Positions 8,488 to 46,854 of a stretch of DNA of 64,000 bases are shown here, in pieces. Each line of letters starts with the position of its first letter. The first letter of the stretch is position 1. This stretch comes from Patescibacteria group bacterium. GTDB taxonomy: Bacteria; Patescibacteriota; Microgenomatia; PFEM01; JAHIFH01. Both the position numbers and the translations under genes were made by a program. The stretch is from positions 157,848 through 221,847 of the forward strand of contig DATKWU010000009.1 in NCBI GenBank assembly GCA_035529375.1. The letters are read 5' to 3'. The notes beneath the pieces were generated by a model, which searched no databases, was not told the DNA's origin, and was given only the letters and a program-made list of their open reading frames with translations.

Positions 8488-8537
8488 ATTCTTTTTTTTT
8501 AATTGCCTTTTAAAGCTAATTCTGATATTATAGGGTT

Positions 8538-15815: not shown

Positions 15816-15820
15816 CAAAT

Positions 15821-33334: not shown

Positions 33335-33981
33335 TATTTCAAAAAAGTCTCTTTTAATTTTTTAATACTTTCTTCCATTAAAACAATCTGTTGATGATTC
33401 AAAACTTGGTAAGTATTAAGCTGATTAGCCTGAACCAACTCAATCCCAACTAGATTCCTTGAAGCCCGAATAACGTTTTCCAAAACTTCTGGCAAAACCA
33501 AAAGAATCTTCACTTTTTTTTCCTTTTTTTCTTTTAAAGGCAAACTCGCAAGAACCGCAGCCATGATCTTAGTCTTTGGTTCCACCTTGCTCAATCCCTT
33601 AACCGCAACTATTTCTTTTTCCTTAAATTTACTTGTTAAAGCGGAAAACAAGGCTTGGCGTTTCATTTTCTTGCTCATTTTCAATTTATAATTTTCCTTG
33701 CCCGTCGGACTGTGAGCCCGACCACCACCAACAAAAATCGGGGCATAACGATCACCGTGACGGGCCCGACCCGTGCCTTTTTGACGCCAAATTTTTCTTC
33801 GGGAACCTGTGACTTCGGCCCGAGTTTTGGTTTTAGCACCGGCTTTTCTTTGATTTGAAAGATAAACCCTAATAGCCTGAGTCATTAAGAGCTGGTTAAT
33901 TTTAGCTTCAAATATCTCTTTAGGTAAACTAACTTGACCTGCCTTTCTACCAGAAATTGTGTAGAGATCTGCTTTAGCCAT
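33334..33981 (-). CDS. rplD: 50S ribosomal protein L4
   Basis: 215 aa protein with the conserved position and an L4 pattern. Confidence 0.85.
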   Translation of the reverse strand: MAKADLYTISGRKAGQVSLPKEIFEAKINQLLMTQAIRVYLSNQRKAGAKTKTRAEVTGSRRKIWRQKGTGRARHGDRYAPIFVGGGRAHSPTGKENYKLKMSKKMKRQALFSALTSKFKEKEIVAVKGLSKVEPKTKIMAAVLASLPLKEKKEKKVKILLVLPEVLENVIRASRNLVGIELVQANQLNTYQVLNHQQIVLMEESIKKLKETFLK

Positions 33982-34837
33982 TTTCTTTTACCTCCTCAGT
34001 TTGTTTTTCTTTTGGTTTTTCCTCTTTTTTCTCTCCTGGTTTTTCCTCTTGACCTGATTCTGGTTTAGTTTTAGCTGCTTCGGCGGCAGTCAAAGATTCT
34101 TTAGCTTCTTTTTCTCGCCGCAAACGCTCAATTCGCTGTCCCTCAGTTTCTTCAATCTCTTTCTTACCCATCTCCATTAAAGGTACAAACCGCTTGTCTT
34201 TGCCTGTTTTGGTAATAATCAAAAACCCATTTCGGGCTCCTGGAACCAATCCTTTAATTAATAATTCTTCATTTTCCTCATCAACTGCCTGGAGTGTTAA
34301 TCCCTTAACCGCTATTCGGGCGTTACCGGATCGACCTGGCATTTTCTTGCCTTTGTGAACCCTACCGGGTGTGGTGCCTTGGCCAATTGAACCTGGTGCT
34401 CTTTCTCGATCAGATTGACCATGAGTTCGCGGTCCACCTTTAAAGCCCCAGCGTTTCATTACACCGGTAAAACCCTTGCCTTTTGACCAACCAGTCACTT
34501 TTACCTGGTCGCCCGGCTGAAAAATATCAGTAATCTTAATTCGTCCGCCCACTTTAATCTCATCCCCAAAAGGCTTCTCTAATCTAATTTCCCGCAAAAA
34601 ACGAGGAGCCTTTTCTAATTTGGCTCCTTTTAAGTGTCCTTTTAATGGCTTCTTAATCTTAGTTATTTTTTTCTCCCCCCAACCAATCTGAACTGCATGA
34701 TAGCCGTCTTTCTTCTCTTTCCGAACCTGAACCACATGACAAGGCCCAGCTTTAACTCTGGTTACTGGTATTCTTGTTCCGTCTTGAGTAAATCTCTGAT
34801 TTACCTCTTTTTTTATGCCTAAAATCGCGTTCAGCAT
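33974..34837 (-). CDS. rplC: 50S ribosomal protein L3, with an acid/Lys-rich C-terminal extension of about 85 aa
   Basis: The start is taken at MLNAILGIKKEV (34837), whereas the ORF track extends to 34867. The ...FTGVMKRWGFKGGPRTHGQSDRERAPGSIGQ core is L3. The tail EEKPGEKKEEKPKEKQTEEVKENG is atypical for L3. Confidence 0.85.
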   Translation of the reverse strand: MLNAILGIKKEVNQRFTQDGTRIPVTRVKAGPCHVVQVRKEKKDGYHAVQIGWGEKKITKIKKPLKGHLKGAKLEKAPRFLREIRLEKPFGDEIKVGGRIKITDIFQPGDQVKVTGWSKGKGFTGVMKRWGFKGGPRTHGQSDRERAPGSIGQGTTPGRVHKGKKMPGRSGNARIAVKGLTLQAVDEENEELLIKGLVPGARNGFLIITKTGKDKRFVPLMEMGKKEIEETEGQRIERLRREKEAKESLTAAEAAKTKPESGQEEKPGEKKEEKPKEKQTEEVKENG

Positions 34838-34846
34838 TTTGACCAC

Positions 34847-34870
34847 CAAAAAGAGTGCCGGAGGCACTCT
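34847..34870 (-). terminator. Hairpin plus T-run immediately upstream of the rplC start (terminator or attenuator)
   Basis: The minus strand reads AGAGUGCC-UCC-GGCACUCU followed by UUUUUGGUGG and then 6 nt to the rplC ATG. The perfect 8-bp stem sits about 155 nt downstream of the methyltransferase stop. Confidence 0.5.
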
Positions 34871-35025
34871 TAGGATTACTCCATTAACTAAATTAGTTTA
34901 ATTTCAATAGGTGTTTAACCTCACCTCCATTACTGAGTATTATAGAAAAATTTAGGATAAAAAGCAAGCTGATTCTTAGTGTAATAGAAAATGTTCGAAC
35001 CGCGACAATTTTAAGAGAAAATTCT

Positions 35026-35721
35026 TTATTTTTTAATCGCTTTTATTAATAGCCTGGTAGGAACAGAAGAATATTTCTTATATTCCGTCAAGTTTTTTTT
35101 GGCTTCTTCGCCCATAGGAATTGGCTCTTCAACAGTCATTAAGTCAAAACCAGAATTTATTGTTGTATTAATGTAATCTGAAATCTTTTTCGGATGATAT
35201 TCAATTTCTGTTCCCCAAGGCGTTTTTTCTATCTTTACTTTATTACTGAAGTATTCTGAATGATTAGTAACAAACCGAAGTGGGTGAATAGCAATAAGAA
35301 ATAGATATCCTCCTCTTACTAACCATCTGGAGATATTCTCCATTGTTTTCTTAAAATCCTTTTGACTTAAGTAATTAAAAGTCATATTACTTACGACAAG
35401 GTCTAAGCTTTCACTCCGTAGTTTTAAATTAGGCAAGTCTGCCTGTATAAGTTTCACATTAGGAAAAGACTTTCGGGTGATATTTAGCATATCGGAACTT
35501 ATGTCAGTTCCGATAAGATTTTTTTCCTGCACTCCCAAATCGAAAAGAAGTTTCATTGTTCTCCCAGCCCCACAACCAGCATCAAGAACCTGCATATCAC
35601 TTTTCAATATTGGTTTTAAGTGCTTTTCTATTGCTGGTTTTTCTATAAATTTCCAACTAAATGATTTCTCTGAAAACTGGACATACTTGGCGGCTTGGGC
35701 GCCTGAATACTTTATTTTCAT
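35026..35721 (-). CDS. Class I SAM-dependent methyltransferase
   Basis: Motif I VLDAGCGAGR and a DISSDM acidic motif II region. Length is 231 aa. Confidence 0.6.
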   Translation of the reverse strand: MKIKYSGAQAAKYVQFSEKSFSWKFIEKPAIEKHLKPILKSDMQVLDAGCGAGRTMKLLFDLGVQEKNLIGTDISSDMLNITRKSFPNVKLIQADLPNLKLRSESLDLVVSNMTFNYLSQKDFKKTMENISRWLVRGGYLFLIAIHPLRFVTNHSEYFSNKVKIEKTPWGTEIEYHPKKISDYINTTINSGFDLMTVEEPIPMGEEAKKNLTEYKKYSSVPTRLLIKAIKK

Positions 35722-35753
35722 GGGGCTAATTATACTTGAAAAACAAATTATAT

Positions 35754-36965
35754 TCAGTCAACAAAAGTCAGGGCTACACCCTTTTTTCCCATTCTTCCTG
35801 TTCTACCTATCCGATGGACATAATCACCATATGTTCTTGGTACGTCATAGTTGATGACATGAGTCACATTCTCTATGTCAATCCCTCTGGAAGCCACATC
35901 TGTCGCCAGTAAAATCTGAACCTCATTATTCTTTAACATATTCAAAGCCCGCAACCTCTGTCCCTGGCTCTTGTTACCATGAATCGCCGCAGCTTTGAAA
36001 CCTCTCTGGGTTAGATTTGCTTCAAGCTTGTTCACTCCCCATTTGGTTCGGCCAAAAACCAAAACCTTCCTAAATTCCTCTTTAATCAACAGCTGGTGAA
36101 GAATCTCAAGTTTGTTTTTGCCCCGAGTTCGAATTATGTCTTGATCAACATTTTGAGGAGTCACACCGGTTTTTACCGACACTGTTACTGGATCAACTAA
36201 AAAACTTTGCATAATCACCTCAGTTTCCTTTGGTATCGTTGCCGAGAAGAATAAAGATTGGCGACTCTTTGGTAAAAATGAAATAATATGTCGGATATCG
36301 TTGATAAATCCCATGTCCAACATACGATCAACTTCATCTAAGACCACGTTTCCGTATTGACTTAAGTTCAAAATCCGTCGTCCTTCTAGATCCTTTATCC
36401 TCCCAGGGGTTCCAATCACAAAATTTGGCTGACGTGACAACTCGCGTGCCTGGACATTCAGTGAGGCACCTCCAATACATAGTGTTGAGAAAACTCTCGT
36501 ACCCAAACTAAACAATTTAAATTCGTCTTGAATCTGTGAAGCTAGTTCGCGAGTAGGTGCCACGATTAAAACCTTTTGACTTCGATCTTTTGACACTTTT
36601 GTAATCAAAGGTAGTAAAAAAGCCGCTGTTTTTCCAGTTCCTGTGTTGGCAAGACCAACCAAGTCCCTTCCTTCCAATACGGGAAGTATTGCCTGGTCTT
36701 GAATTGCAGTCGGCTTGTCAAAACCACGCACTAGAATATTCTTTTTTACAGTTTCATCCAAAGGAAAGTCTGAAAAACTATTCGCTGGCACATATGGCAT
36801 TTCGACAACGTCAATAGCCTTTTTGACAAACATAAGTGGGTTCAAGGAAGCACCTTTGCTTCGGTATCTACCTTGACCTCCTGATCTGTTTGGTCGATAT
36901 TGACCAAAAGATCTATTATTCTGCCCGCGAAAACCACGGGAACGATCGCGCTTAAAATTTCTCAT
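35754..36965 (-). CDS. DEAD-box ATP-dependent RNA helicase with an arginine-rich N-terminal leader
   Basis: Q-motif and motif I GLANTGTGKTAAF, motif II VLDEVDRM, SAT, and motif VI HRIGRTGR. The 40-aa N-terminal leader MRNFKRDRSRGFRGQNNRSFGQYRPNRSGGQGRYRSKG is unusual. Confidence 0.85.
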   Translation of the reverse strand: MRNFKRDRSRGFRGQNNRSFGQYRPNRSGGQGRYRSKGASLNPLMFVKKAIDVVEMPYVPANSFSDFPLDETVKKNILVRGFDKPTAIQDQAILPVLEGRDLVGLANTGTGKTAAFLLPLITKVSKDRSQKVLIVAPTRELASQIQDEFKLFSLGTRVFSTLCIGGASLNVQARELSRQPNFVIGTPGRIKDLEGRRILNLSQYGNVVLDEVDRMLDMGFINDIRHIISFLPKSRQSLFFSATIPKETEVIMQSFLVDPVTVSVKTGVTPQNVDQDIIRTRGKNKLEILHQLLIKEEFRKVLVFGRTKWGVNKLEANLTQRGFKAAAIHGNKSQGQRLRALNMLKNNEVQILLATDVASRGIDIENVTHVINYDVPRTYGDYVHRIGRTGRMGKKGVALTFVD

Positions 36966-37135
36966 TTTTATTATATTAATGGCTTTAAAGGAGACGATTT
37001 GAAAAAAGGGGAAGATACGAATACCTAAACCAAATAAACCGACTCAAATCAGTATTAACTACTGATCAATATTTAAAGCTAACGGAAAGCATTGTAACAC
37101 ATCTAATTATCACTGTCAAACTATAGGATATTTGC

Positions 37136-37639
37136 TCACTTTTTCCCTTTAGTATCTTTTTTCTTGACTGGCGTTAACACTTCAATAGCTTTATCTGCTT
37201 TCTTGATTGTTGATTTTTTACTCTTTTTCGCCTTATTCTCTACCAACTTTGGTTTCTTCTCCCCGACCGACGATAGCAAATCAATAATTATATCAAGCCT
37301 GGTATTTAGAATTTCAATTTTTTCTACAAGTTGTGAAATGCTACGACTATTTATATCGCTTTGCGAAGGCCTTCTTGAATCTCTGTCGCCAAAACTTCTT
37401 CTGGGAGAACCTCTTCTGTCTCTTGATCTATCACTATCGCTTCCGCCTTTCTTCTCAAAACAGTCACTGCAATATACTGGCTTCTCACCGCTTGGCCTGA
37501 AGGGTACTTGACAATCCTTGCCACATTCATCGCAAACTGCATTGTGCAATAAAGGCCTTCTTGAATCTCTGTCGCCAAAACTTCTTCTGGGAGAACCTCT
37601 TCTGTCTCTTGATCTATCACCTGGATTAAAGTTTCTCAT
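37136..37639 (-). CDS. Arginine-rich (RSFG-repeat) protein with a CxxC...CxxC zinc ribbon and a Lys-rich coiled-coil tail
   Basis: MRNFNPGDRSRDRRGSPRRSFGDRDSRRP appears twice, flanking CDECGKDCQVPFRPSGEKPVYCSDCF. The N-terminus is homologous to the leader of the downstream DEAD-box helicase. Confidence 0.5.
   Translation of the reverse strand: MRNFNPGDRSRDRRGSPRRSFGDRDSRRPLLHNAVCDECGKDCQVPFRPSGEKPVYCSDCFEKKGGSDSDRSRDRRGSPRRSFGDRDSRRPSQSDINSRSISQLVEKIEILNTRLDIIIDLLSSVGEKKPKLVENKAKKSKKSTIKKADKAIEVLTPVKKKDTKGKK
37367..37620. repeat. Exact 69-bp direct repeat (copies at about 37367..37435 and 37552..37620) inside the arginine-rich gene
   Basis: aaggccttcttgaatctctgtcgccaaaacttcttctgggagaacctcttctgtctcttgatctatcac occurs twice, identically, about 116 bp apart. 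It encodes the duplicated DRSRDRRGSPRRSFGDRDSRRP peptide. Confidence 0.8.
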
Positions 37640-37883
37640 AAATGCTCCTACTAAATATTAAATATATTAGTGAGTATATGTATTATTAGTATAAATAGCA
37701 AGGAATACTGTAAAAAAATGCAAATAATTGATGAAATAGGAACGGTTTTTAAATAGTCTCGATACTCGTAATTTTGGTTATATTAAGTTGTAAACTGCTC
37801 AGGATAATAGAAAATGTTTGAACTGCTGTTCAGACTAAAGAATACGCTTATACTTCTTGTTAAATAAAAGCTTTTTAATAACC

Positions 37884-38930
37884 TTAATCTTTTAAGGCTT
37901 TATCAAAAAAATCTACTGAACGTTGGAGTGCTGTATCTAAGTTATTAGAAAGATTATGATTGTCTCCTTCATAAGTGTATAACTCTACGGGCTTGCCGGC
38001 ATTTCTCAACGCTTCATCTAATCTCTGACTAAACAGGAGTGGTACTTCATCATCTGCCGTCCCATGTTGAAGCTGTATCGGGCCGGAAATGTCTTTGACA
38101 AACGATATGGGTGAAATTGACTGCCAAAACTGGGGATTTTCTTCAAAGTTACCGTATTTATCAATCAGTTCCTGTCTTCCTGGCCGTCTTTCCGCCTGTT
38201 CTCTTTGCGAAGGCACCCAAGGCTGAGGATTATGAACTGGATGATGCCAGTTTATGGCTAAATCTTCATAAGAAGCCACTACTCCTGCCCAGATTTCTCC
38301 TGCCTTAATATCTTCTGTTACTACCATTGAACGCAAAACTATCATTCCTCCCATAGAATGACCCCACATGCCGATTCTTTCTGGGTCAGCATCTTTATAT
38401 TTTTTCATCGATGAAACAGCATTCAAAACATCTACTGTATAGGCTGATGAATAATAAGCGCCTTCTGGTTTGCCTTCTGAATTGCCGTGCCCCCTAAAAT
38501 CGGGTTTAAAAACAAGATATCCATTCCTGGAGAAAGCATCAATGTAAGCAACATATTTCTCGGTTGTTCTATACTGTTCTGGTTGAATGTAGCCGTGGTT
38601 AAAAACAATCACCGGCCAGCCGGTCTCAGGTTGTTCTCCTTGTGGTATCGTTAACAGAGCATAAATTTTTAAACCGTCTGATTTATAAGAAGCAATGTAT
38701 CTATTGTAATTTGAGCCGGGAGGCAGTGTCTGTTCGATAACAATATCGCTTCCGGGGTATTCCTGCTTCCTCATATATTCTATGGAGAGAGAGTTGGGTT
38801 CGTTTGTCAATCCGCCGAGGTTCTGCTCATTTATTTCTTTGGGAATACTTTTAAAGAAGCGGTTATAAGTGATAGTGCCGCCGAATATACATACAACAAT
38901 AATAGAAATAACAAGAGTACGTTTTCTCAT
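37884..38930 (-). CDS. Secreted or membrane-anchored alpha/beta hydrolase (prolyl-oligopeptidase/S9 or dienelactone-hydrolase-like)
   Basis: N-terminal TM/signal segment TLVISIIVVCIFGG and a nucleophile elbow GHSMGG, with later Asp/His residues (GTADDEV, GDNHNL). A TATAAT box lies 12 nt upstream with no SD. Confidence 0.6.
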   Translation of the reverse strand: MRKRTLVISIIVVCIFGGTITYNRFFKSIPKEINEQNLGGLTNEPNSLSIEYMRKQEYPGSDIVIEQTLPPGSNYNRYIASYKSDGLKIYALLTIPQGEQPETGWPVIVFNHGYIQPEQYRTTEKYVAYIDAFSRNGYLVFKPDFRGHGNSEGKPEGAYYSSAYTVDVLNAVSSMKKYKDADPERIGMWGHSMGGMIVLRSMVVTEDIKAGEIWAGVVASYEDLAINWHHPVHNPQPWVPSQREQAERRPGRQELIDKYGNFEENPQFWQSISPISFVKDISGPIQLQHGTADDEVPLLFSQRLDEALRNAGKPVELYTYEGDNHNLSNNLDTALQRSVDFFDKALKD

Positions 38931-39076
38931 TTTGCACAAAAAAAATTATTATACCAGGTTTTTCTGACAAAATCATAAAGAAAATTACTTCTGGTTTTTG
39001 AAGATTTTAAGTTTGTGCAGGAATTGAGGGAGGAAATAAAAAAACTAACCTCTCAAGAGGCATTAATAGGCTGTTG

Positions 39077-39745
39077 TTAATTACTCAGCCTATTTCCCCT
39101 CCCTGGATGGGCCGGAACCTGTGCGCCAGCAAACCAATCATTGATTCCGTTATATAAAGATTGGGCAATCTGCTGTTGCCGGTTTCCAGTACCATCAGTT
39201 AATAAACCACATTCAGTCATATTTGATATAAAAGCTACTTCCTGAATAGTGGCGGGCATTTCCGCTTTAAGAATTACTCCAGAGGCAAACTGCAATAATC
39301 CTCCATTGCCAATTCCCAAGCTCGGATATAGTTGATTATGGATTGTCGAGGCTAAATCAATGTCTTTTTTCCATTTAGCGTACAATCCTTGAGTGTAATT
39401 CAATTCATGGTCGGTTGAACCGTTGAAATGAATGGAAACCAGAATTTCACCATCTGTATTGTTGGCAAGAGTGTATCTATCTCTATTGGTCATATAGACA
39501 TCGCTTTCTCTAGTCATGTAAACTGTTACATCGGGCTCAAGCAGTGCTTTTAGCCTTTTTGCTACATCTAAATTTGCATCAGCCTCTGATAAACCAGGAC
39601 ACTCCATTGAACCAGGCTCATCGCCGCCGTGTCCAGCGTCAATGACTATTTTGTGGCCAGTTGCCTCTGCCGTATTGGAAACAAACACTAATGACGCAAC
39701 CCACAATAACAAAACCAAAACAAGAAATACTATTTTTTTATTCAT
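39077..39745 (-). CDS. N-acetylmuramoyl-L-alanine amidase (Amidase_3 family) with a signal peptide
   Basis: KIVIDAGHGGDEPG zinc-site motif and SIHFNG. The start is at the ATG (MNKKIV...) downstream of the AAAGGGGGTGA SD. Confidence 0.7.
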   Translation of the reverse strand: MNKKIVFLVLVLLLWVASLVFVSNTAEATGHKIVIDAGHGGDEPGSMECPGLSEADANLDVAKRLKALLEPDVTVYMTRESDVYMTNRDRYTLANNTDGEILVSIHFNGSTDHELNYTQGLYAKWKKDIDLASTIHNQLYPSLGIGNGGLLQFASGVILKAEMPATIQEVAFISNMTECGLLTDGTGNRQQQIAQSLYNGINDWFAGAQVPAHPGRGNRLSN

Positions 39746-39775
39746 CCATTTCACCCCCTTTCAAACACTAGTTTT

Positions 39776-40378
39776 TTATCTGTAAAACAGTCTGATAAGC
39801 CAGCCGAAAATACTTCCGACCTGCTCTTCTGCCTGAATCTGCTCTTCTAAACTCGTATTCTGCTCAACCAGAGCCTGAATCGCTTCCTCAAGTTGGGTTT
39901 CATCAGCCTGGTTAGCTACTTGGTTTTGCAGTTGAGTTAACTGCCGGATTCTAAGCTGATTTTGTTCCATTTGTTGCTTGAGGTTTTTGATGGCTCCGTA
40001 GTCAGGACCAAACAACTTTTTCATTAAACCTGACCTGGATTCCAATTTGTTCAATTGAGTCTGAGTCTGTGTTTGAGTCTGGACCTGTTCCTGGGCAATA
40101 TTTCTTACCTGACTGCCGACTTCCTCATTTAAACCTTCCATGTCCATTAACTGCTCCATGTGCTGTGTGGCCACCTGCAATTGGGTTTCTTCTCCTTGAT
40201 TTTGAGTTTGGACCTGATTTTGATTCTGAACTTGGTTGCCTTGGGGAGTTGGCGAACCGCTAAGGTGGGTAGATGGGTCCTGGACTTTATTTTGCTGCTG
40301 GACTCCTTGAGCTGATACAAAAGAGGGAACAAGTATTAACGCTAACGCGATTATTGATGTTGCAATCAATTTCTTCAA
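39776..40378 (-). CDS. Secreted Gln-rich coiled-coil protein with a C-terminal hydrophobic tail
   Basis: Signal peptide KKLIATSIIALALILVPSFVSA, QTQTQTQ tracts and a C-terminal SIFGWLIRLFYR. A probable TTG start lies 8 nt after AAGGAGGTG. Confidence 0.45.
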   Translation of the reverse strand: MKKLIATSIIALALILVPSFVSAQGVQQQNKVQDPSTHLSGSPTPQGNQVQNQNQVQTQNQGEETQLQVATQHMEQLMDMEGLNEEVGSQVRNIAQEQVQTQTQTQTQLNKLESRSGLMKKLFGPDYGAIKNLKQQMEQNQLRIRQLTQLQNQVANQADETQLEEAIQALVEQNTSLEEQIQAEEQVGSIFGWLIRLFYR

Positions 40379-40607
40379 TTTTCTCACCTCCTTTTCCAGT
40401 AATTTTACTATATTTTACCTCAAGTTAAAGAAATTTATAAGTTTTAACTCTACTCTACAAAGTTAAAATATTAAAAACCTCTCATTATCTATAATTCGGC
40501 CAGTGAATTTAGCCAGACAGTCTTTCAAGGCTTTAAATAGGCGCGGGAATTGAGAAAGGAAATTGATAGGGTTAAAAACCCTACCACAATACCCGCAATT
40601 ATCTAAT

Positions 40608-41312
40608 TCACTCGTTATAAAGCTCTTGAATTCCTAGCCAGTCTCCGGTTCCTAAGGTTTGCTTATCAATCTCTCCGTAACCGCTATATCCATACATGGT
40701 CAACGCCGTGCTTGGCGGCATGTATAAGTCACTTAATCCATTGTGCCCGAATTCATGAGTGGCAATGTTTTGCAGGTCCATTTTGCCGCTTTCACCAGCC
40801 AAACTCCAAGTGAAACCTGTACTAAATACAACATCAGATTCTACTATAATTTTTAATGCTGGATTATACCAAAATTGATTTACTGCAATAATTCCTGATC
40901 CTAGACTTCCCCATGTTACTGTATTAGTATAATCTCTGTTTTCATTAAAACTTACGCTATCATCTAACTCTGGTGTTGCAAAAAGCTCAAATGAAGTTTC
41001 AATATCCCATGTTTCTAAACTTTCGCTTAGAGTAGCTATCACTTCATTTTCATTTAAGTAGCTTCCATAGGGGTTCACTTCATAAGTCATGGTGTCGGCC
41101 CACCTTATTCCACCGGCAATGAATTTGAATTTATCTACCGTGTCATCCCAAACTGGTTTGGAATTTTTAGCAGATTTTGCGTAGTGAATAAAGGTTATTT
41201 TTTCTAAATCCGGCGGAGTGGTTTCTGGTTTTCCTGGCTGTTCTTTTGCCAATACCGGAAAAGCTAAAGCCAAAAACAGCAAACAACTAGCTCCAATTAA
41301 AAATTTCCTCAT
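40608..41312 (-). CDS. Secreted zinc metalloprotease, metzincin-like with a snapalysin-type HExxHxxGxxD site
   Basis: Signal peptide, then HEFGHNGLSDLY and a Met-turn TALTMYGY. The start is at MRKFLIG after the AAAGGGGGTGA SD. Confidence 0.6.
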   Translation of the reverse strand: MRKFLIGASCLLFLALAFPVLAKEQPGKPETTPPDLEKITFIHYAKSAKNSKPVWDDTVDKFKFIAGGIRWADTMTYEVNPYGSYLNENEVIATLSESLETWDIETSFELFATPELDDSVSFNENRDYTNTVTWGSLGSGIIAVNQFWYNPALKIIVESDVVFSTGFTWSLAGESGKMDLQNIATHEFGHNGLSDLYMPPSTALTMYGYSGYGEIDKQTLGTGDWLGIQELYNE

Positions 41313-41388
41313 ATATTTGTTCACCCCTTTCTAAACACTAAAATTGCTAAATAATCTTACGCGAAAATCGCAAAAGAATATCTATAAA

Positions 41389-41592
41389 TTAGTTCAGAGG
41401 TCCCCAAGGTCCAGCCGGGGCTTCATCCTCCATGTCAAATCGACAACGAGCCTCAGGGCCCCAAGGACCGGACCGATGTTCCGTGCAGTCGCCATCTTCA
41501 GGCTGGCTGGCCGCCATAACGCTCACGCTGAGTACCGACATGATTACTGTCATCAACAGCCCCACGGCCACAATGAAAGTTAATTTCTTCAT
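41389..41592 (-). CDS. Small secreted Cys-containing peptide precursor (67 aa) with GPWGP repeats
   Basis: MKKLTFIVAVGLLMTVIMSVLSVSVMA | ASQPEDGDCTEHRSGPWGPEARCRFDMEDEAPAGPWGPLN. It has the same AAAGGGGGTGA SD as its neighbours, and its GC content is markedly higher than the flanking DNA. Confidence 0.45.
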   Translation of the reverse strand: MKKLTFIVAVGLLMTVIMSVLSVSVMAASQPEDGDCTEHRSGPWGPEARCRFDMEDEAPAGPWGPLN

Positions 41593-41623
41593 TTTATTCA
41601 CCCCCTTTCAATTTCAAATTTTC

Positions 41624-41650
41624 AATAAAAAATCCGCATAAAAGCGGATT
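41624..41650 (-). terminator. Rho-independent terminator downstream of the 2H-phosphoesterase gene
   Basis: The minus strand reads AAUCCGC-UUUUAU-GCGGAUU followed by UUUUUAUUG. It lies only about 25 nt upstream of the peptide gene's SD. Confidence 0.5.
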
Positions 41651-41932
41651 AATAAATTTTCTTTGAATTGGGCAGGCAAGTGACTTGCCTCATTAGTCAG
41701 ACGATAACAAGTTTTTCACGAATAGTCAACCAGCGGGTCAATCGAGATGTAAATAGTAAAAATGAAGCCCATCTAGTTTTAGCCTCATAATTCCCTTACA
41801 ACTAGGGGATTTTATTAGAGGCGATTTAAGGCTAGTTTCTGCCTGAAGTTTTAAACCAAAGCTAACTTGGGTATATTAAATTCCAACTAGCTCACCCGAT
41901 GGGACGATTTTCGAACCTTTATAAAATATTAC

Positions 41933-42487
41933 TTAATAGAAAGTTATTTCTCGAAGCATACCCCATGACTTTGCGTCTGTTGCTTTTTTAAATACAAATA
42001 TTGACTCAACCTTAAAGGAAAACACATTGTTAAAATTTTTTAATTCCTTTTTAATCTTAGGAAGTGAGTTGTTTGGTATTTTCTCCGCAATAGTCATATG
42101 AGGATTAAACTTGTCAGGAGTTGGACTATATTCACTGTAAACACTTTTTGTATAACCTTCTAAGAACTTAACAGTTTTTACTAGTAAGTTAATAATATAT
42201 TTAGACGATTTAGAATCAGGTTTTACAAACGCAACATTATTTCTACCTTTAAAATAATCAATTGAATTAAGAGTAACTTCACCACATTTCGTTTTAGAAA
42301 AGTCGTTTACAAGTTTTGTAAGAAATCGTCTTTCCGTAATACCTTTTAAAAAGAATGGTGGATATACGGTAATGTGTGAGGGAATAGTGTAACTTGTGTA
42401 TTTTGCATACAATCTGCGATATTTATCCATTGTTTTAATAACTTCTTTTGGAGGGAGAATGACTATTAGGTAAGAGTAAGAGTTCAT
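41933..42487 (-). CDS. 2H phosphoesterase superfamily protein (LigT/cyclic-phosphodiesterase-like)
   Basis: Two H-x-T-x motifs (PSHITVYP and NPHMTIAE) with appropriate spacing. The gene is AT-rich and has a leaderless-type promoter. Confidence 0.5.
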   Translation of the reverse strand: MNSYSYLIVILPPKEVIKTMDKYRRLYAKYTSYTIPSHITVYPPFFLKGITERRFLTKLVNDFSKTKCGEVTLNSIDYFKGRNNVAFVKPDSKSSKYIINLLVKTVKFLEGYTKSVYSEYSPTPDKFNPHMTIAEKIPNNSLPKIKKELKNFNNVFSFKVESIFVFKKATDAKSWGMLREITFY

Positions 42488-42637
42488 ACGTGAAGTATAT
42501 CATCTGAGGCTAAAGGTCGTGGCTCGAGGATCTTAACGCTAATATAACCAGTCAATTCGTGCGTATTTTCAAGGTATTTGAGGATTCCAAGTTTATCAGT
42601 CAACTACAGGAAGAAATGAATAGAGTGATACCAGCAG

Positions 42638-43042
42638 TCAATCTTTCAAGTGGTACGATTCGTTCATCCATTCAATGATTTCATCGTCTATTTCTTGCTT
42701 GCTGCTTATATCAAAACAATTCTTATATACCATGCTGGACATTGGTACACATACTTTCAACCTTGGGCTATCAAGTTTTCTATCTAATGCAAACCTTATC
42801 TCTAACCTATCATTTTTAGGTAACGCTGCCAAAAAGTCATATTTACCAAACAAATGAACACAGCAAGGAATAGAAATTATTTTGCATTTACCAATCTTGC
42901 TGTCAATTTGTTCTACTAAAAAGTCAAACAGCTTTTTTGCTTGCTTCTTACCTACAAAATGCTTTTGCAAAGGAATCTTTTTACAACTATGAGGTTGGTT
43001 GGCGCCTCTGAAAATTCGTTTGCATTTAGGACACGTCCACAT
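42638..43042 (-). CDS. Hypothetical protein with an N-terminal C2HC zinc finger
   Basis: MWTCPKCKRIFRGANQPHSC. A TACAAT box ends 6 nt before the ATG. Confidence 0.4.
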   Translation of the reverse strand: MWTCPKCKRIFRGANQPHSCKKIPLQKHFVGKKQAKKLFDFLVEQIDSKIGKCKIISIPCCVHLFGKYDFLAALPKNDRLEIRFALDRKLDSPRLKVCVPMSSMVYKNCFDISSKQEIDDEIIEWMNESYHLKD

Positions 43043-43260
43043 GGTTCAATTGTACTAGTTTTATCAGGAAATGATAAATGGAAGGTTATATTAAAGACTA
43101 TTCGACTAATTTAATTTCATGGCTAAATTTCTTTATGCTCCCCAAACCAAAAGATATTATATCCAAGGTTTTAGGCACAATTCTTACTGCTTTTGAGGAT
43201 GTAAACCAGATGGAAGTGATTAAAGTGAGGTGGGAGGAGATAAAGAAGTTACAGCCACAA

Positions 43261-43545
43261 CTAGCGACTTCCTAGTTTTTTTATCCTCTCAGCTAATAAA
43301 CCAGTTAATGAACCTATCCCAAACCAGAAAATTCCAACAAAAAGAACATTAAAAATAAAATTGTCAGAAAATGCTCGGCAACAGGTTTCAAAAATCTCTT
43401 CAAAAATGATTGAGGGAATAACCATCCAAAATAAAATACTTATTTTACCTCCAGTAATGAGTCCGAAGAGTAACCCCAAAACTATCAAGACTGGAAAAAT
43501 CATAACTCCGGAAACTAACCAATAAGGTAAGTTTTTAAGTTTCAT
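43261..43545 (-). CDS. Small membrane protein
   Basis: 94 aa with three predicted TM helices and a leaderless-type promoter (TGATATAAT 4 nt before the ATG). Confidence 0.4.
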   Translation of the reverse strand: MKLKNLPYWLVSGVMIFPVLIVLGLLFGLITGGKISILFWMVIPSIIFEEIFETCCRAFSDNFIFNVLFVGIFWFGIGSLTGLLAERIKKLGSR

Positions 43546-43648
43546 TATTTTAATTATATCAGAAGTTCGAAGGGCAACACTTGGTATATTAAAAACGAGA
43601 CTAAATTTCTAAGCCCTCCCTTGCGGACGATGTTCTAACTAGCCTATT

Positions 43649-44050
43649 TTAGTAGATTTTTTTTCGAAGATGTGTTAAATAGGCAGAAAAAATTGTTGTT
43701 AAAAGTTGCAAGAAAGGAGAAATAACAACCATCAAGACTAACCATCCCCAAAAACTAGCAACTGGAGTAAAAAGTATTAGAGGTTCACCAAAATTAGCAA
43801 TATCTTTTGTAGAGTCTAAACAATATGGCAACATCGCTAATAACCAAATAACAGCAAGGATTAAAAAGGTAAATAACGAGGCGAAGATTGAATATCTAAA
43901 AACCTTCCGCTCATCAATAAAATTACGAGCAAGAAAATATCCCAGAGGAAAACCTAAAAGTATATTAAAAAACGGGACTCCCATGCCCATGCCTATACAA
44001 ATAATGTCAATTGCCAGATAACCTAAAATCCATTTTTTCTTTATTTTCAT
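43649..44050 (-). CDS. Small membrane protein
   Basis: 133 aa with four predicted TM helices. It has a classical SD (AAGGAGG) and a TATAAT box after the upstream terminator. Confidence 0.45.
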   Translation of the reverse strand: MKIKKKWILGYLAIDIICIGMGMGVPFFNILLGFPLGYFLARNFIDERKVFRYSIFASLFTFLILAVIWLLAMLPYCLDSTKDIANFGEPLILFTPVASFWGWLVLMVVISPFLQLLTTIFSAYLTHLRKKIY

Positions 44051-44140
44051 TTTTCCTCCTTATGCCAATATTTTACATCAATCTTATAAAAGACTAAACC
44101 ATGTCCAGGGTGGGGTGGTAGATGGAAATTATTATAACCA

Positions 44141-44183
44141 ACAAAAAAGGACGTAGTATCGGAATAATTTGATACCTGCGTCC
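44141..44183 (-). terminator. Rho-independent terminator after the 172-aa hypothetical gene
   Basis: The minus strand reads GGACGCAGGUAUC...GAUACUACGUCC followed by UUUUUUGUUGG. Confidence 0.5.
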
Positions 44184-44258
44184 AACCGAGCTCCCCCTAA
44201 AGGACCTATTCTGCAACCAAGAACTAGAATTTGATTTGAGCCTACAGGAAGTTAAAAC

Positions 44259-44777
44259 TTACTTTCTAGTCCAACTCGCTGATTGACTCATTGTTACGCT
44301 CAATCTATCTCCATATAGACACATCTCATCTATCACAACTCGATACTCCAGTGCACTTTCTATCATTGATTTAAGATAAATTGCTACAGGCAGAGTTCCA
44401 TCGCTTTCTTGTCCGAAAGCTTCTAATACTCGTATTCGTGTGTCCTTATCTGTATGGATAACTACACTTTCTTCGCTAGAAAGAACTCCTTGAGAATCAT
44501 TCTTCACTCTACCCTCTATTACCAGGCCGACCCTTTCTTTGGGGTTATCGAGGTCTGAAACTGTATATGGTGTAAGGAGGTATAAACCGTCTTGTGTAAC
44601 TTCGGCCACAAAATTAGACAGAAGAACCGGATGGTCCTCAGAGTCATCAATCTCAGCCTGCCTTTTGAATAACTCGTGTAGTTCATCCATGGTTAGAGAA
44701 TATTCACCTCTGCTTTTTTCCGCCACAACCTCTATTAAAGCAATGTGCACTGGTCTTAACTCTGGTCTCTCAGGCAT
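44259..44777 (-). CDS. Hypothetical protein
   Basis: 172 aa acidic soluble protein with higher GC than its neighbours and an extended -10 (TGATATACT) ending 8 nt before the ATG. Confidence 0.4.
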   Translation of the reverse strand: MPERPELRPVHIALIEVVAEKSRGEYSLTMDELHELFKRQAEIDDSEDHPVLLSNFVAEVTQDGLYLLTPYTVSDLDNPKERVGLVIEGRVKNDSQGVLSSEESVVIHTDKDTRIRVLEAFGQESDGTLPVAIYLKSMIESALEYRVVIDEMCLYGDRLSVTMSQSASWTRK

Positions 44778-44879
44778 GTCCGAAGTATATCAAATCTGAA
44801 GCTAAAATCCTAGCTCCCCACGGTATACAGGCTTCGAGACTGGCTAACAGACAACTTTTTAGATATTCCGGCTCTAAGA

Positions 44880-45272
44880 CTAAGCGTTGCTATCTAAGAA
44901 TTGCTTAAGCGCTTGCAGGTCTTTTTTATCGGGGTCGTAATAATATGAGGTTATACCGAGCGATTGAGCGCTTTTTGTTGCTTCTGGACTGTGTTCAAAA
45001 TAGACAACATCTTCCGGTTGGAGGCTAAAGTGTTCTAGCATTTTCCTAAAATACTCGGGGTCAGTCTTTTCCGGATTGTGCTTTAGTGTAAAAACCTCAT
45101 AGGGCATTTTGTCCAAGCCAAACTTCTTAAATTGCTTATCGTTCGCGCCGGTTAAGATTATTTTTTGATTTGGAAAGCCCTCAAGAAGATCGTGCATTTC
45201 CTTAAAAATCTTAAAGGCATCCTTACCCTTAACCACAAAAGCGCCAATTGCGTCTACTAAAATAGTTTTCAT
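44880..45272 (-). CDS. Hypothetical protein, possibly a degenerate HAD-like fold
   Basis: ILVDAIGAF (a weak DxDG-like motif I) and a VVYFEHSPEATKSAQSLGI motif III/IV-like stretch. The assignment is tentative. Confidence 0.3.
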   Translation of the reverse strand: MKTILVDAIGAFVVKGKDAFKIFKEMHDLLEGFPNQKIILTGANDKQFKKFGLDKMPYEVFTLKHNPEKTDPEYFRKMLEHFSLQPEDVVYFEHSPEATKSAQSLGITSYYYDPDKKDLQALKQFLDSNA

Positions 45273-45347
45273 AATTGAAGTATAACAAAAAGCGTTTTAG
45301 GGTTACATTCTATGCTCCGCGAACAGGACTCGAACTAATATTAAAAT

Positions 45348-45656
45348 TTACATTTTGATTTCAATATCCACTCCTGAAGGAAGTTCAAGATGCATTAAGG
45401 AGTCAATTGTTTTACTGGTTGGTTCAAGAATATCAATCAATCTTTTATGAGTGAGGATTTGGAAGTGTTCTCTGGCGTCTTTGTCAGTGTGGGGACTGGT
45501 GGTAACCGTAATCAGTTTTCGGTGGGTTGGTAGAGGCACAGGACCCACTACTTTGGCACCACTAGCTAAGGCTGTTTCTAAGATTTTTTCGCAACTCTCA
45601 TCGATGACTCGATGATCATATGCTTTTAAACGTACCCTTATTCTGCCCTTTGGCAT
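45348..45656 (-). CDS. rpsJ: 30S ribosomal protein S10
   Basis: [25 protein letters not shown] is the S10 N-terminus. The start is taken at 45656 (the ORF track extends further), directly after the tuf stop. Confidence 0.85.
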
Positions 45657-45663
45657 TCTCTCC

Positions 45664-46854
45664 TTAGGCGATAATTTTACTAATTGCTCCCGCCCCAACA
45701 GTGTGACCACCCTCACGGATAGCAAAACGGAAGCCTTCTTCCATAGCGACCGGCTGAATAAGCTTGACTGTCATCTTGGCATTATCACCAGGCATGACCA
45801 TTTCTACTCCCTTAGAGAGAGTGACTTCACCGGTTACATCTGTAGTTCGAACATAAAATTGAGGTTTGTAACCACTGAAGAAAGGGGTATGACGACCACC
45901 TTCTTCTTTGGTAAGGATATAAACTTCTGCCTCAAATTCTTGATGAGGCTTAATGGTACCAGGTTTTGCTAAAGCTTGACCTCGTTCCACGTCTTTCTTT
46001 TCGACTCCTCGAAGAAGAATACCAACGTTATCACCAGCTTCACCTTCATCAAGAGTTTTACGGAACATCTCAACACCAGTGACCGTTGTCTTTTGGGTGT
46101 CGCGAAGACCGATGATTTCGATTTCATCACCAACTTTAATTTTACCTCGTTCGATTCTTCCAGTGACAACAGTCCCTCGACCTTTAATAGAGAAAACATC
46201 CTCAAGAGGCATCAAGAAGGGTTTGTCTAAAGGCCGTTTAGGTGTCGGAATATTTTCATCAACCGCCTTCATCAGTTCAAGAACGGCTTTTTCTGCTTCA
46301 GCATCGCCCTCAAGGGCCTTAGCGGCGGAGCCTCGAATAATCGCAATTTTGTCACCAGGGAATTTATATTTAGTTAAAAGTTCCCTAATTTCCATTTCAA
46401 CCAGATCAAGCATCTCTTTGTCCTTAACCAAATCGACTTTATTTAGGAAAACGATCATGGCTGGCACATCAACCTGACGAGCCAAGAGAATATGCTCTCG
46501 AGTCTGAGGCATTGGACCATCATCGGCGGCGACAACAAGAATGGCACCATCCATTTGAGCAGCACCGGTAATCATGTTTTTAATAAAGTCTTTGTGTCCG
46601 GGACAGTCAATGTGAGCATAGTGACGCTTTTCCGTCTCATACTCAATGTGGGAAATAGAAATTGTCAAACCCCGTTCTTTTTCTTCAGGAGCGTTATCAA
46701 TCTGATCAAAGGGAATATATTTTGTCCCCGTATTTGCTTTCTCTAAAACCTTGGTAATTGCTGAGGTTAAAGTCGTCTTACCATGGTCAACGTGACCAAT
46801 GGTCCCAATATTAACGTGAGGTTTTTCTCTTTTAAATTTTGTTTTTTCAGCCAC
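45664..46854 (-). CDS. tuf: Elongation factor Tu
   Basis: [24 protein letters not shown]... is full-length EF-Tu. Confidence 0.95.

Follow-up and report, generated by a model that had tools for sequence, protein, structure and literature searches.

The block of small genes between rpsJ and rplC of the Patescibacteria contig studied here, which spans approximately 41866 to 45335 of the window (the whole 64,000-nt stretch of DNA that was analysed), is probably a decayed integrative-element island whose independent cargo genes would be transcribed from ordinary leaderless promoters. The sequence motif recurring in the block appears to consist of att-site scars derived from the end of a tRNA gene, and related elements carry a recombinase, which makes a decayed island the most likely interpretation. 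Of 6 Patescibacteria relatives, 4 have rpsJ directly next to rplC and the other 2 have different inserts at this place. The features of the block are collected in Table 1. Of the two terminator-like hairpins listed there, the one after hyp172 was missed by a simple scan because its loop exceeds 8 nt, and the one at 41631..41650 closes a 330-nt non-coding stretch past the 2H gene.

Table 1 Features of the block and its surroundings (window positions)
Feature	Position	Strand	Description
2H phosphoesterase	41933..42487	-	LigT/YjcG-like, 184 aa, predicted leaderless
2H start	ATG 42485-42487	-	TGATATACT + 6 nt + ATG
Zinc finger	42638..43042	-	C2HC + DUF5655, 134 aa, predicted leaderless
Zinc-finger start	ATG 43040-43042	-	TACAAT without TG + 6 nt + ATG
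Zinc-finger -10 box and spacer	43043..43054	-	
mem94	43261..43545	-	small membrane protein, predicted leaderless
mem94 start	promoter 43546..43561; ATG 43543-43545	-	extended -10 TGATATAAT + 7 nt + ATG
mem133	43649..44050	-	small membrane protein
hyp172	44259..44777	-	172-aa protein without assigned function, predicted leaderless
hyp172 start	ATG 44775-44777	-	TGATATACT + 6 nt + ATG
HAD-superfamily-like small hydrolase	44880..45272	-	130 aa, predicted leaderless
HAD-like start	promoter 45273..45287; ATG 45270-45272	-	extended -10 TGTTATACT + 6 nt + ATG
R1	45313..45335	-	23-nt fragment of true tRNA-Asn 3' end, T-loop to acceptor end, GTTCGAGTCCTGTTCGCGGAGCA
R2	44782..44838	-	degenerate, fused to hyp172 promoter: decayed tRNA-like part TCTCGAAGCCTGTATACC, then GGAGCTAG, TTTAGCTTCAGA, TGATATACTTC
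R3	43579..43640	-	decayed pseudo-tRNA-Asn end GTTAGAACATCGTCCGC, then GGGCTTAG, flank-like TTTTTAATATACCAAGT
R4	42492..42526	-	right-hand part only, fused to 2H promoter, CGAGCCACGACCTTTAGCCTCAGA-TGATATACTTC
R5	41866..41921	-	best copy: pseudo-tRNA-Asn 3' end GGTTCGAAAATCGTCCCATCGGGTGAGCTA, then tRNA-Asn downstream flank GTTGGAATTTAATATACCCAAG
Hairpin after hyp172	44143..44183	-	intrinsic-terminator-like, GGACGCAGGTATC...GATACTACGTCC, then TTTTTT (sequence and fold)
Hairpin past 2H	41631..41650	-	terminator-like, with T-run, scored on + strand too

Inspection of the sequence showed that five minus-strand block genes (2H, zinc-finger, mem94, hyp172 and HAD-like) have a -10 box at a distance of 6-7 nt upstream of the ATG, and no GGAG-type Shine-Dalgarno motif was found at these starts. 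Four of the five boxes have the extended TG and that of the zinc-finger gene is a plain TACAAT, with a -35-like TTATCA 17 nt upstream; the boxes and spacers described in the initial annotation were recovered exactly. The sole block gene with a Shine-Dalgarno motif is mem133 (start 44050), which has a strong AAGGAGG 4 nt before its ATG. In sigma-70 promoters the canonical +1 lies 7 nt past the last T of the -10 box, so that a 6-nt spacer puts the A of the ATG at this very position. The layout is retained upstream of homologues in three related loci (L001, L089 and L002) and of a zinc-finger homologue in L213, and 2H orthologues of 184 aa have an identical start position. Leaderless mRNAs for the five genes, with predicted starts, are thus supported by geometry and conservation. 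Every block gene except mem133 would form its own transcription unit with a housekeeping-type -10 promoter, and the position of the box would direct transcription from the A of the ATG, yielding a leaderless mRNA.

This part of the earlier prediction stands, but it does not set the block apart. An extended -10 box (TGNTANNNT) is found 5-8 nt upstream at 11 of the 80 starts in the window, compared to ~0.7% for other ATG trinucleotides in the window, and 7 of the 11 are located outside the block (8034, 8092, 8538, 23489, 38939, 50163 and 51160, the latter being rpsL). Over the whole window the spacers of TGNTANNNT are most often 6 nt long, in 6 genes, or 7 nt, in 4 genes, and a sharp peak at 6 nt is also present in 8 related loci (7 genes). 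The peak recurs in 44 further loci, in which 32 of 255 starts have a box at 5-8 nt, with TATACT as second commonest hexamer, versus 3 of 270 control starts in Bacilli and 0 of 131 in Clostridia. Shine-Dalgarno motifs occur at 27 of the 80 window genes, mostly operon-internal. The promoter-at-start-codon layout is usual for operon-first genes in this Patescibacteria lineage and not specific to the block, which is therefore unremarkable on this count; the initial annotation had itself named a widespread layout as what would make it so, and for operon-first genes this is largely what the survey of the window and the related loci found. Operon-first genes would be leaderless, and internal operon genes use GGAGG-type Shine-Dalgarno sites. 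A comparable organization is known from the GeneMarkS-2 study, which describes bacterial genomes where 25-50% of operons have a Pribnow box at 6-8 nt from their first gene (PMC6028130). The group C genomes of that study (Actinobacteria, Deinococcus-Thermus) share the -10 box 6-8 nt upstream of operon-first starts, the lack of Shine-Dalgarno motifs at operon-first genes and their presence at internal ones, and a proportion of leaderless transcription units of about a quarter to half (PMC6028130), which compares with ~13 of the 31 window genes that are preceded by a gap of 50 nt or more. They differ in being high-GC Actinobacteria rather than AT-rich Patescibacteria; the boxes found here are moreover mostly extended (TGN) and the starts are predicted. 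A literature search returned no description of this leaderless layout for Patescibacteria/CPR.

The 2H phosphoesterase assignment of the initial annotation is confirmed: both HxT motifs are present (H38-I-T40 and H130-M-T132) and the protein matches Pfam 2_5_RNA_ligase2 (E=2e-14) and LigT_PEase (E=1.3e-7), its match to NCBIfam PRK13679 (E=2.3e-10) reaching 40.6 bits with a curated cut-off of 129 bits. The zinc-finger protein matches Pfam DUF5655 (E=1.5e-6) and is widely conserved in Patescibacteria, with 526 homologues that are mostly 134 aa long and have the same N-terminus. The HAD-like protein matches NCBIfam HAD-SF-IA-v3 (E=1.4e-7) and, just below the curated cut-off, Pfam HAD_2 (E=7e-5). 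No match to hyp172 was found in Pfam, NCBIfam, PHROG or PADLOC; it has just 15 relatives among 1.8 billion representatives, and its AF2 model (pLDDT 86.9) has no fold match in the PDB.

It had been proposed that these genes form one co-regulated stress/defence or nucleotide-signalling module, with the upstream motif as the shared operator of one regulator. The presence of a 2H phosphoesterase fits this proposal, as do several features of the promoters. TGNTATACTTC is common to three block promoters and occurs nowhere else in the 64 kb (3 occurrences, 0.12 expected), the 2H and hyp172 promoters are alike over ~25 nt, and the block has a higher density of extended -10 boxes (4 of 6 genes) than the rest of the window (7 of 74; Fisher p=0.003), although the excess is only borderline (p=0.06) when the comparison is restricted to genes preceded by a gap of 50 nt or more. 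However, the PADLOC defence profiles gave no match in 8 proteins, the block has no regulator gene, and no two block genes were found to co-occur conservedly in other genomes; 2H homologues are found in four different gene neighbourhoods, and the neighbourhoods of hyp172 and zinc-finger homologues differ as well. Promoters of the TGATATACTT type, followed by ATG, also precede unrelated genes in L001, L002, L116 and L130. The motif itself has no fixed register, lying at about -25, -40, -57 and -60 from the ATG, and it is homologous to the tRNA-Asn end and flank. In L001 and L089 the copies begin 0-41 nt past stop codons, and two of them precede convergent genes, i.e. follow genes without a downstream gene on the same strand. 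A common operator does not agree with these findings, and the existence of a single regulated module is considered extremely unlikely.

Judged by alignment, the motif, which had been rendered as ACAGG-CTCGA-ACTAA, is a direct repeat in degenerate form that corresponds to the tRNA-Asn(GTT) 3' end together with the flank downstream of this gene. A real repeat had thus been noticed, although it is loose inside the window and the coordinates quoted for it were several bases off (acaggcttcgagactggctaacag is located at 44827-44850 and cgaacaggactcgaactaat at 45320-45339). The GAAGTATA that was reported as a separate motif is the reverse complement of TATACTTC, i.e. the -10 box plus 2 nt. Similarity is marginal in pairs of copies within the window (R3 vs R5: z=4.3, 3/2000 shuffles), where the YTCGAR core is not enriched (65 found vs 74 expected), and is clearly significant only against copies in other genomes. 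The best copy, R5, begins 11 nt past the 2H stop, with the exact 17-nt core 17 nt past it, and has a 5-nt insertion in the T-loop; it was recovered by an independent 42-copy profile (E=4.6e-11) and aligns over 53 nt with the tRNA-Asn 3' end and flank of L001 (z=18.1, 0/2000). R1, which begins 12 nt past the rpsJ stop and lacks a tRNA body, is identical at 20 of 23 positions to the tRNA 3' end at 1-31 of L163 (z=10.5, 0/2000 shuffles), which in turn has a single difference to the tRNA-Asn that ARAGORN called in L110; neither ARAGORN nor Rfam reported a tRNA at R1. R2 and R4 are recognised mainly via the parts flanking the tRNA-like core and the promoter itself: R2 (44782-44816) matches the repeat-plus-promoter module before the 2H homologue of L089 (z=12.3, 0/2000; also in a multiple alignment), and R4, in which the tRNA-like core is absent, matches the sequence after the full repeat core in L130 (z=11.0, 0/2000) and is kept upstream of the 2H orthologue in L001. 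Similarly, TATACTTCAATTATG of the HAD-like promoter is also found after a repeat copy in L116. R3 begins 9 nt past the mem133 stop and agrees with the core at 13 of 17 positions; it was missed by the 42-copy profile and is therefore the weakest of the assigned copies. The remaining 7 kb from the block to rplC contain no detectable repeats.

The related contigs connect the repeats with a tRNA gene and a recombinase. In 7 loci (L001, L169, L116, L152, L158, L110 and L166) the repeats are preceded by a tRNA-Asn(GTT) gene in the same orientation, and tRNA-Asn is the only tRNA type heading these arrays. A zinc-finger homologue adjoins tRNA-Asn in L211, and in L159 one lies ~1 kb past a repeat. On its opposite strand the repeat codes for W-D-D-F-R-T at the C-terminus of a large serine recombinase (…L-L-A-R-W-D-D-F-R-T…), and the plus-strand translation of R5 reads LGILNSN*LTRWDDFRT. 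The 17-mer has two variable positions, and changes at either are synonymous in this antisense frame; because the metagenome copies were collected by exact 17-mer, the conservation of the 17-mer among them is by construction, and about half of them are without the second block and could represent chance matches or unrelated coding sequence. The recombinase of L163 (ORF 3-1637) matches Resolvase (1e-19), Recombinase (3.5e-17) and Zn_ribbon_recom (1.6e-5). It abuts the tRNA 3' end and is followed by ~8.5 kb of cargo and a repeat at 8510-8536, before which the displaced 30-codon recombinase tail (after W-D-D-F-R-T) is found. L159 has a 62%-identical recombinase with a repeat ~5.5 kb away. Integrases of the SSV1 type have attP inside the integrase gene, which is split by integration; the SSV1 enzyme, a tyrosine recombinase found in archaeal viruses, is divided close to its 5' part. 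L163 resembles this in that the recombinase body lies at the tRNA end and its last 30 codons ~8.5 kb off beside the other repeat, but its enzyme is a bacterial serine recombinase, which would lose only a short C-terminal tail. An attP located within the 3' end of the recombinase gene would give rise to this arrangement.

Islands at tRNA genes are delimited in the same manner, a tDNA and its displaced 3' fragment, in direct orientation, marking the island ends (PMC4383910). The repeats described here are likewise direct repeats homologous to a tRNA 3' end with variable cargo between them, and related loci have an intact tRNA-Asn heading the array and an adjoining integrase. They differ in that the repeat has a 5-nt T-loop insertion and overlaps the 3' coding end of the recombinase, and in that a large serine recombinase acts as the integrase; according to the Islander paper (2014), no serine integrase was known to use a tRNA gene as its target (PMC4383910). 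Within the window no recombinase gene and no tRNA-Asn gene were found, so that the window island lacks two of its defining parts. In Prochlorococcus, which likewise has streamlined genomes, tRNA-adjacent islands are filled by successive integrations of tycheposons; partial tRNAs and cargo genes remain there from tandem and degraded elements, and a minority of the tycheposons have large serine recombinases (10.1101/2020.12.28.424599). Phylum and target tRNA are different here, no replication genes were found, and the cargo consists mostly of single small genes with their own leaderless promoter fused to the repeat.

The latter organization could also indicate a cassette platform at tRNA-Asn, a functional analogue of integrons, in which the repeats are active serine-recombinase sites for capturing and shuffling units of a repeat, its own leaderless promoter and one small ORF. 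Co-oriented repeats 0.25-2.7 kb apart without an integrase between them occur in L145, L153, L169, L089, L001 and L130, a spacing that is not obviously predicted by simple decay of 7-9 kb elements; L145 has 3 copies ~335 nt apart with one 67-81-aa ORF per interval. The cargo stop and the repeat core are 0-5 nt apart in many copies, in L089, L116 and L130 the promoter is fused straight to the repeat, and the 2H genes of the window and L001 have different upstream neighbours and the same downstream repeat. Integron arrays similarly hold unrelated small ORFs in the same orientation with a recurring site at or right past the stop, but here IntI tyrosine recombinase and attC-like imperfect palindromes are absent (fold z-scores of the intergenic regions -1.8 to +1.5), the units have their own promoters and the repeats are tRNA-derived. 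Large serine recombinases normally use unlike attP/attB pairs and not arrays of like sites, the window and most arrays have no recombinase, and no cassette with boundaries running precisely from repeat to repeat was found to be shared by two arrays. Deletion within tandem elements could also give such arrays, and the exact-17-mer search introduces ascertainment bias. Active shuffling of cassettes is thus regarded as unlikely.

A role at the RNA level was also considered, in which the repeats are tRNA-like punctuation for 3'-end processing or termination between packed transcription units. The origin of the repeats in the 3' part of a tRNA and their position 0-41 nt past stops are in line with this, terminator hairpins bracket or follow repeats in L153 and L109, and in some copies pairing of GAGCTA with TAGCYTC is feasible. 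The GAGCTA/TAGCYTC pairing is lost in R4, R1 and L001, however, and a cloverleaf is impossible because only the 3' third of the tRNA, with the 5-nt T-loop insertion, is present. No fold in the block beats shuffled sequence and no Rfam match was found. Since such a role would also leave the antisense coding frame and the adjacency of the recombinase unexplained, it appears very improbable.

For the decayed island, we infer the recombination mechanism, the crossover point and the history as follows. The repeats would be att-site junction scars of integrative elements with a tRNA gene as their insertion site, and the elements in related contigs carry a large serine recombinase of which the gene ends antisense inside the element's own copy of the tRNA end. 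One or more insertions just after rpsJ would have built the island, which would since have lost the recombinase and the tRNA body and retained small unrelated cargo genes with their own promoters. In more distant relatives no tRNA adjoins rpsJ; R1 could be a scar brought in with an element instead of a remnant of a resident tRNA. With the motif read as copies of the tRNA-Asn end, i.e. as scars of mobile DNA, the block resembles a mosaic of imported genes and not a single functional system.

The genes rpsJ and rplC, which are normally adjacent, are split in the window (33974-45725) by ~10.5 kb with ~14 accessory genes. Adjacency was found in four of six Patescibacteria relatives (L009, L010, L012 and L014), and the other two (L011 and L013) carry different inserts of 1.2-1.4 kb between rpsJ and rplC. 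The region is thus absent or different in relatives, as is expected of a genomic island, and no tRNA gene was found beside rpsJ in the relatives examined. The window is part of a metagenome-assembled genome of the Patescibacteria (CPR), which is present in the data sets ERZ27256828, JGI 3300031566 and SRR8554511/2. Nearly all window genes are located on the minus strand, including the six genes of the block next to rpsJ, between which degenerate direct repeats (R1 to R5) are found. Accessory genes beyond the block include those for an M10 peptidase, an amidase, a hydrolase, a DEAD helicase and a methyltransferase. The motifs H38-I-T40 and H130-M-T132, read directly, place one block protein in the 2H phosphoesterase superfamily, and it matches Pfam PF13563 above the gathering score (E=2e-14). 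The genes rpsG and fusA are also separated in the window, with a sulfotransferase gene and a 118-aa ORF between them. The start of rpsJ is ambiguous (45664-45725): the TTG start gives a protein of 125 aa and a 62-nt overlap with tuf, while an alternative protein of 102 aa, used in one public call, agrees with relatives.

Genes of the block, its ribosomal protein neighbours and the repeats R1 to R5 (window coordinates)
Feature	Position	Strand	Remark
rpsJ	45348-45725	-	one side of the block
R1	45313-45335	-	right after rpsJ
HAD-like hydrolase	44880-45272	-	block gene
R2		-	5' of hyp172
hyp172, 172 aa, no family	44259-44777	-	block gene
mem133, small membrane protein	43649-44050	-	has AAGGAGG
R3		-	after mem133
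mem94, small membrane protein	43261-43545	-	block gene
C2HC zinc finger and DUF5655 protein	42638-43042	-	block gene
R4		-	5' of the 2H gene
2H phosphoesterase	41933-42487	-	block gene
R5	41866-41921	-	after the 2H gene
rplC	33974-34867		~10.5 kb beyond rpsJ

The initial annotation had described five genes with a -10 box abutting the ATG and without a Shine-Dalgarno sequence, and this description was confirmed. In five of the six block genes a -10 hexamer ends 5-8 nt upstream of the start codon, with spacers, from the 2H gene towards rpsJ, of 6, 6, 7, 6 and 6 nt. The box is TGATATACT for both the 2H gene and hyp172, TGTTATACT for the HAD-like gene, TGATATAAT for mem94 and a plain TACAAT for the zinc-finger gene. 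All five genes start with ATG, and GGAG, GAGG and AAGGA are absent 3-12 nt from the start in each of them. A stretch earlier listed as a separate motif, GAAGTATA, is the reverse complement of TATACTTC, and hence the -10 box itself. Start codons are backed by homologues with the same N-termini and lengths for the 2H protein (184 aa) and hyp172 (166-172 aa), and the zinc-finger protein shares its N-terminus and its length of 134 aa with most of the best 120 of 526 homologues; those of the HAD-like and mem94 genes rest on public gene calls. The seventh base after a -10 hexamer is the canonical +1, and with a 6-nt spacer this base is the A of the ATG. From this standard promoter geometry it is reasonable to predict that the five genes are leaderless. 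Some public gene calls begin such genes too late, at an ATG further downstream: P0001 gives the 2H protein 165 rather than 184 aa, and P0017 gives the zinc-finger protein 110 rather than 134 aa.

This layout is not special to the block. The box TGNTANNNT is located 5-8 nt upstream of the start in 11 of 80 window genes, with a sharp peak at 6 and 7 nt, against a background of only ~0.7% of the other ATG trinucleotides in the window. Seven of these 11 genes lie outside the block, among which rpsL (start 51160) and the genes starting at 8034, 8092, 8538, 23489, 38939 and 50163, and a plain -10 box stands at this spacing in several further window genes. Of the 31 window genes preceded by a gap of 50 nt or more, approximately 13 look leaderless, and operon-internal genes carry GGAGG-type sites (27/80 window genes). 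Eight related Patescibacteria loci show this spacer peak too, as do another 44 loci (215 kb), in which the box was present at 5-8 nt in 32 of 255 starts, TATACT being the second commonest hexamer, whereas the layout is nearly absent in Bacilli (3/270 starts) and absent in Clostridia (0/131). It is also kept upstream of homologues of the 2H gene in L001 and L089, of hyp172 in L002 and of the zinc-finger gene in L213. The window layout agrees with the "group C" genome type of GeneMarkS-2 (PMC6028130); no paper stating a leaderless layout for CPR bacteria was found in the literature searched. Extended -10 boxes are denser in the block than in the rest of the window (4/6 vs 7/74, p=0.003), because every block gene forms a unit of its own; when only genes with an upstream gap are compared, the excess becomes borderline (p=0.06). 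The leaderless layout is therefore ordinary, the normal way in this lineage to start operon-first genes.

The initial annotation had also proposed a related motif upstream of four of these genes as a common operator. The motif exists, a few bases away from the positions first quoted; its interpretation had to be replaced. Within the window its YTCGAR core is not enriched, its distance to the ATG is variable, and the pairwise similarity of upstream regions is marginal: the best non-trivial pairs reached only z=4-5 in 171 comparisons, and one pair includes a gene outside the block. The region upstream of the 2H homologue in the related locus L089 joins GTTCGAAAATCATCCCA…GCGAGCTAG directly to TTAGCCTCAGATGATATACTTC…ATG, and the window counterpart of the first part is located downstream of the 2H gene. 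With a small profile, more copies were detected in both L001 and L089, all on the coding strand 0-41 nt after a stop codon, and two of these precede convergent genes, which rules out a promoter-upstream operator. A DNA uptake sequence was rejected, the 64 kb window holding only one or two copies, as was an alternative sigma promoter (sigma-54 or ECF), the consensus dinucleotides of which do not, by eye, fit the conserved 17-mer GTTCKAAAATCRTCCCA.

Comparison with related loci suggests a different origin. A metagenome scan with this 17-mer yielded >120 loci, and 80 of them were retained; the conservation of the 17-mer among the retrieved copies is by construction, since it was the query. A second block, G.GAGC, follows 4-5 nt further on in about half of 103 copies. 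Several loci harbour co-oriented arrays of the repeat (L145, L153, L169, L130 and L136), and tRNA-Asn(GTT), the sole tRNA type at the head of repeat arrays, precedes the repeats in the same orientation in L001, L169, L116, L152, L158, L110 and L166. The clearest link of the window to tRNA-Asn is R5, which aligns over 53 nt with the tRNA-Asn 3' end and downstream flank of L001 (z=18.1), the main difference besides point substitutions being a 5-nt insertion in the T-loop; an independent 42-copy profile scored R5 at E=4.6e-11. R1 matches a true tRNA-Asn end at 20 of 23 positions (z=10.5). R2 and R4 match repeat-plus-promoter modules of L089 (z=12.3) and L130 (z=11), respectively, whereas R3 is a decayed copy with 13/17 of the core (z=4.3 vs R5). 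All window copies are on the minus strand, and displaced 3' tRNA fragments in direct orientation are thus present. On these alignments, the motif is probably a recombination scar derived from tRNA-Asn.

Neither ARAGORN nor Rfam, at the gathering score or at E<=10, detected a tRNA gene or tRNA-like RNA in the block, and no known RNA family covers the repeat in nine repeat-bearing loci. The sole Rfam and ARAGORN matches in the window are RNase P RNA (class A, 114 bits; 2366-2659, minus strand) and tRNA-Pro(GGG) (15742-15816, plus strand), the promoter of which also has an extended -10 box (TGTGATAAAAT). A stretch of ~260 nt without an ORF (41602-41865) separates R5 from the next gene and is closed by a terminator-like hairpin (41631-41650, scored on both strands); the fold z-score of 41602-41750 is -1.8. 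This stretch may represent a former flank of the chromosome, the remains of a gene or a small RNA. A 65-aa ORF in public annotations (43078-43275, plus strand) lacks a family match, overlaps a flank-like TTTAATATAACC motif and may be spurious. Elsewhere, three repeat copies in L153 (2724-4044) are bracketed by terminator hairpins and adjoin a reverse-transcriptase ORF (1134-2207). Six co-oriented copies in L109 (2414-5303) form a sub-family without the second block, and a terminator follows every one of them. L089 has an intergenic group I intron match near its 2H homologue (1438-1651; Rfam RF00028, 66 bits, E=7.6e-15).

The repeat is connected to a serine recombinase. Antisense, the 17-mer reads TGG GAY GAT TTT MGA AC, encoding W-D-D-F-R-T, with both variable positions synonymous; the frame M-G-R-F-S-N was rejected, since common variants yield stop codons there. 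The W-D-D-F-R-T frame is open far upstream in L160, L094 and L119, and L160 matches PHROG 95, "integrase" (E=1.3e-14). Pfam gave no matches for the C-terminal recombinase fragments, so that the recombinase was identified only via PHROG and a full-length ORF in L163. This ORF (3-1637) harbours Resolvase (PF00239, 1e-19), Recombinase (PF07508, 3.5e-17) and zinc ribbon (PF13408, 1.6e-5) domains and thus encodes a large serine recombinase. At the start of the contig the 3' end of this ORF leads into a genuine tRNA 3' end, read antisense, which matches the tRNA-Asn called by ARAGORN in L110 at all but one position. A repeat is found ~8.5 kb away (8510-8536; 8400-8536 with the tail), preceded by the antisense of a conserved 30-codon "tail" that continues W-D-D-F-R-T. 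This suggests that the attachment site lies inside the recombinase gene's own 3' end; the crossover is predicted at or near GAGC(A). L159 likewise has a 62%-identical recombinase with a repeat ~5.5 kb away.

Sequence states resembling all four types of att site were found. A tRNA-Asn followed by flank (L001) resembles an unoccupied site, a tRNA end followed by the recombinase (L163) resembles attL, a pseudo-tRNA end followed by flank (R5 of the window, L104 and L159) resembles attR, and the tail, pseudo-tRNA end and recombinase of L094, the recombinase-side part of which is only loosely tRNA-like, resemble attP. These states fit the rule that an island is bounded by a tRNA gene and a displaced fragment of it (PMC4383910), and they also fit islands in which degraded elements accumulate together with partial tRNAs (10.1101/2020.12.28.424599). 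The most likely reading of the block is an integrative-element island that was inserted after rpsJ and has since decayed, the unrelated cargo genes of which would each keep an ordinary leaderless promoter. The tRNA-Asn-derived scar would explain why unrelated genes stand together here.

Several observations sit less easily with a decayed island. A recombinase is present in L163 and L159, but tblastn with the L163 enzyme found nothing in the window at E<=1e-4. An intact tRNA-Asn is present in L001, L116, L166, L169, L152, L158 and L110, but the sole tRNA of the window is the tRNA-Pro at 15742. R3 is weak, and the repeats are limited to the rpsJ-proximal 3.5 kb of the insert, leaving the remaining 7 kb to rplC without any. 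Furthermore, the repeats of several arrays are spaced at 0.25-2.7 kb, unlike what simple decay of 7-9 kb elements would give; in L145 (1-1090) three copies lie ~335 nt apart with a single ORF of 67-81 aa between each pair. This short spacing leaves room for an integron-like cassette system peculiar to Patescibacteria, in which a serine recombinase would move units of a repeat, a built-in leaderless promoter and one small ORF, the block being an array now without its recombinase. The attachment site in the 3' end of the recombinase gene would mimic the tRNA-Asn 3' end, the element would insert at tRNA-Asn, and the same enzyme or a relative would move the cassettes. The promoter is indeed physically fused to the repeat in several genomes (L089, L116 and L130). 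The block differs from an integron in that no IntI tyrosine recombinase gene is present, and structured attC sites are absent, intergenic folds being no better than shuffles (fold z-scores were non-significant except for two terminators). Integron cassettes are also promoterless, whereas each block unit has its own -10 box. We consider such a cassette system rather unlikely.

That the genes form a nucleotide-signalling or defence module, as had been suggested from their content, is unsupported. PADLOC-DB 2.0 gave no match at E<=0.01 for eight proteins, and in PHROG only the HAD-like protein matched, weakly. The block genes are not neighbours in the other loci compared: 2H homologues occur in four different neighbourhoods (the contexts in L001, L089 and L090 differ), hyp172 homologues in another (L002-L004), and zinc-finger homologues in three further contexts (L211, L213 and L215), one directly after tRNA-Asn. 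A 185-aa ORF near the zinc-finger homologue of L215, considered as a hidden 2H protein, is unrelated. The AF2 models of the zinc-finger protein (pLDDT 91.7) and of hyp172 (confident) gave no significant PDB fold or sequence match. The zinc finger-DUF5655 protein has 526 matches across Patescibacteria, the best 120 of which are 65-81% identical. Its gene directly follows tRNA-Asn in L211 (3855-4405) and lies ~1 kb after a repeat in L159 (6917-8316), so that it may belong to the resident genes beside the tRNA-Asn locus.

The leaderless layout and the genes as originally described are of little importance, the layout being ordinary and the genes forming no system; a caution for annotation is that gene callers truncate leaderless genes of this kind. 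The tRNA-Asn-derived scar is the more interesting result, although systems of its kind are already known. Of more weight is what the motif is: accessory genes of very small genomes can arrive via serine-recombinase elements that use tRNA-Asn, and even rpsJ and rplC can be separated by such insertions. GTTCKAAAATCRTCCCA followed by G.GAGC provides a searchable island signature for Patescibacteria MAGs. If the cassette system were real, a platform for gene capture resembling the integron would have been invented independently a second time, with a serine rather than a tyrosine recombinase.
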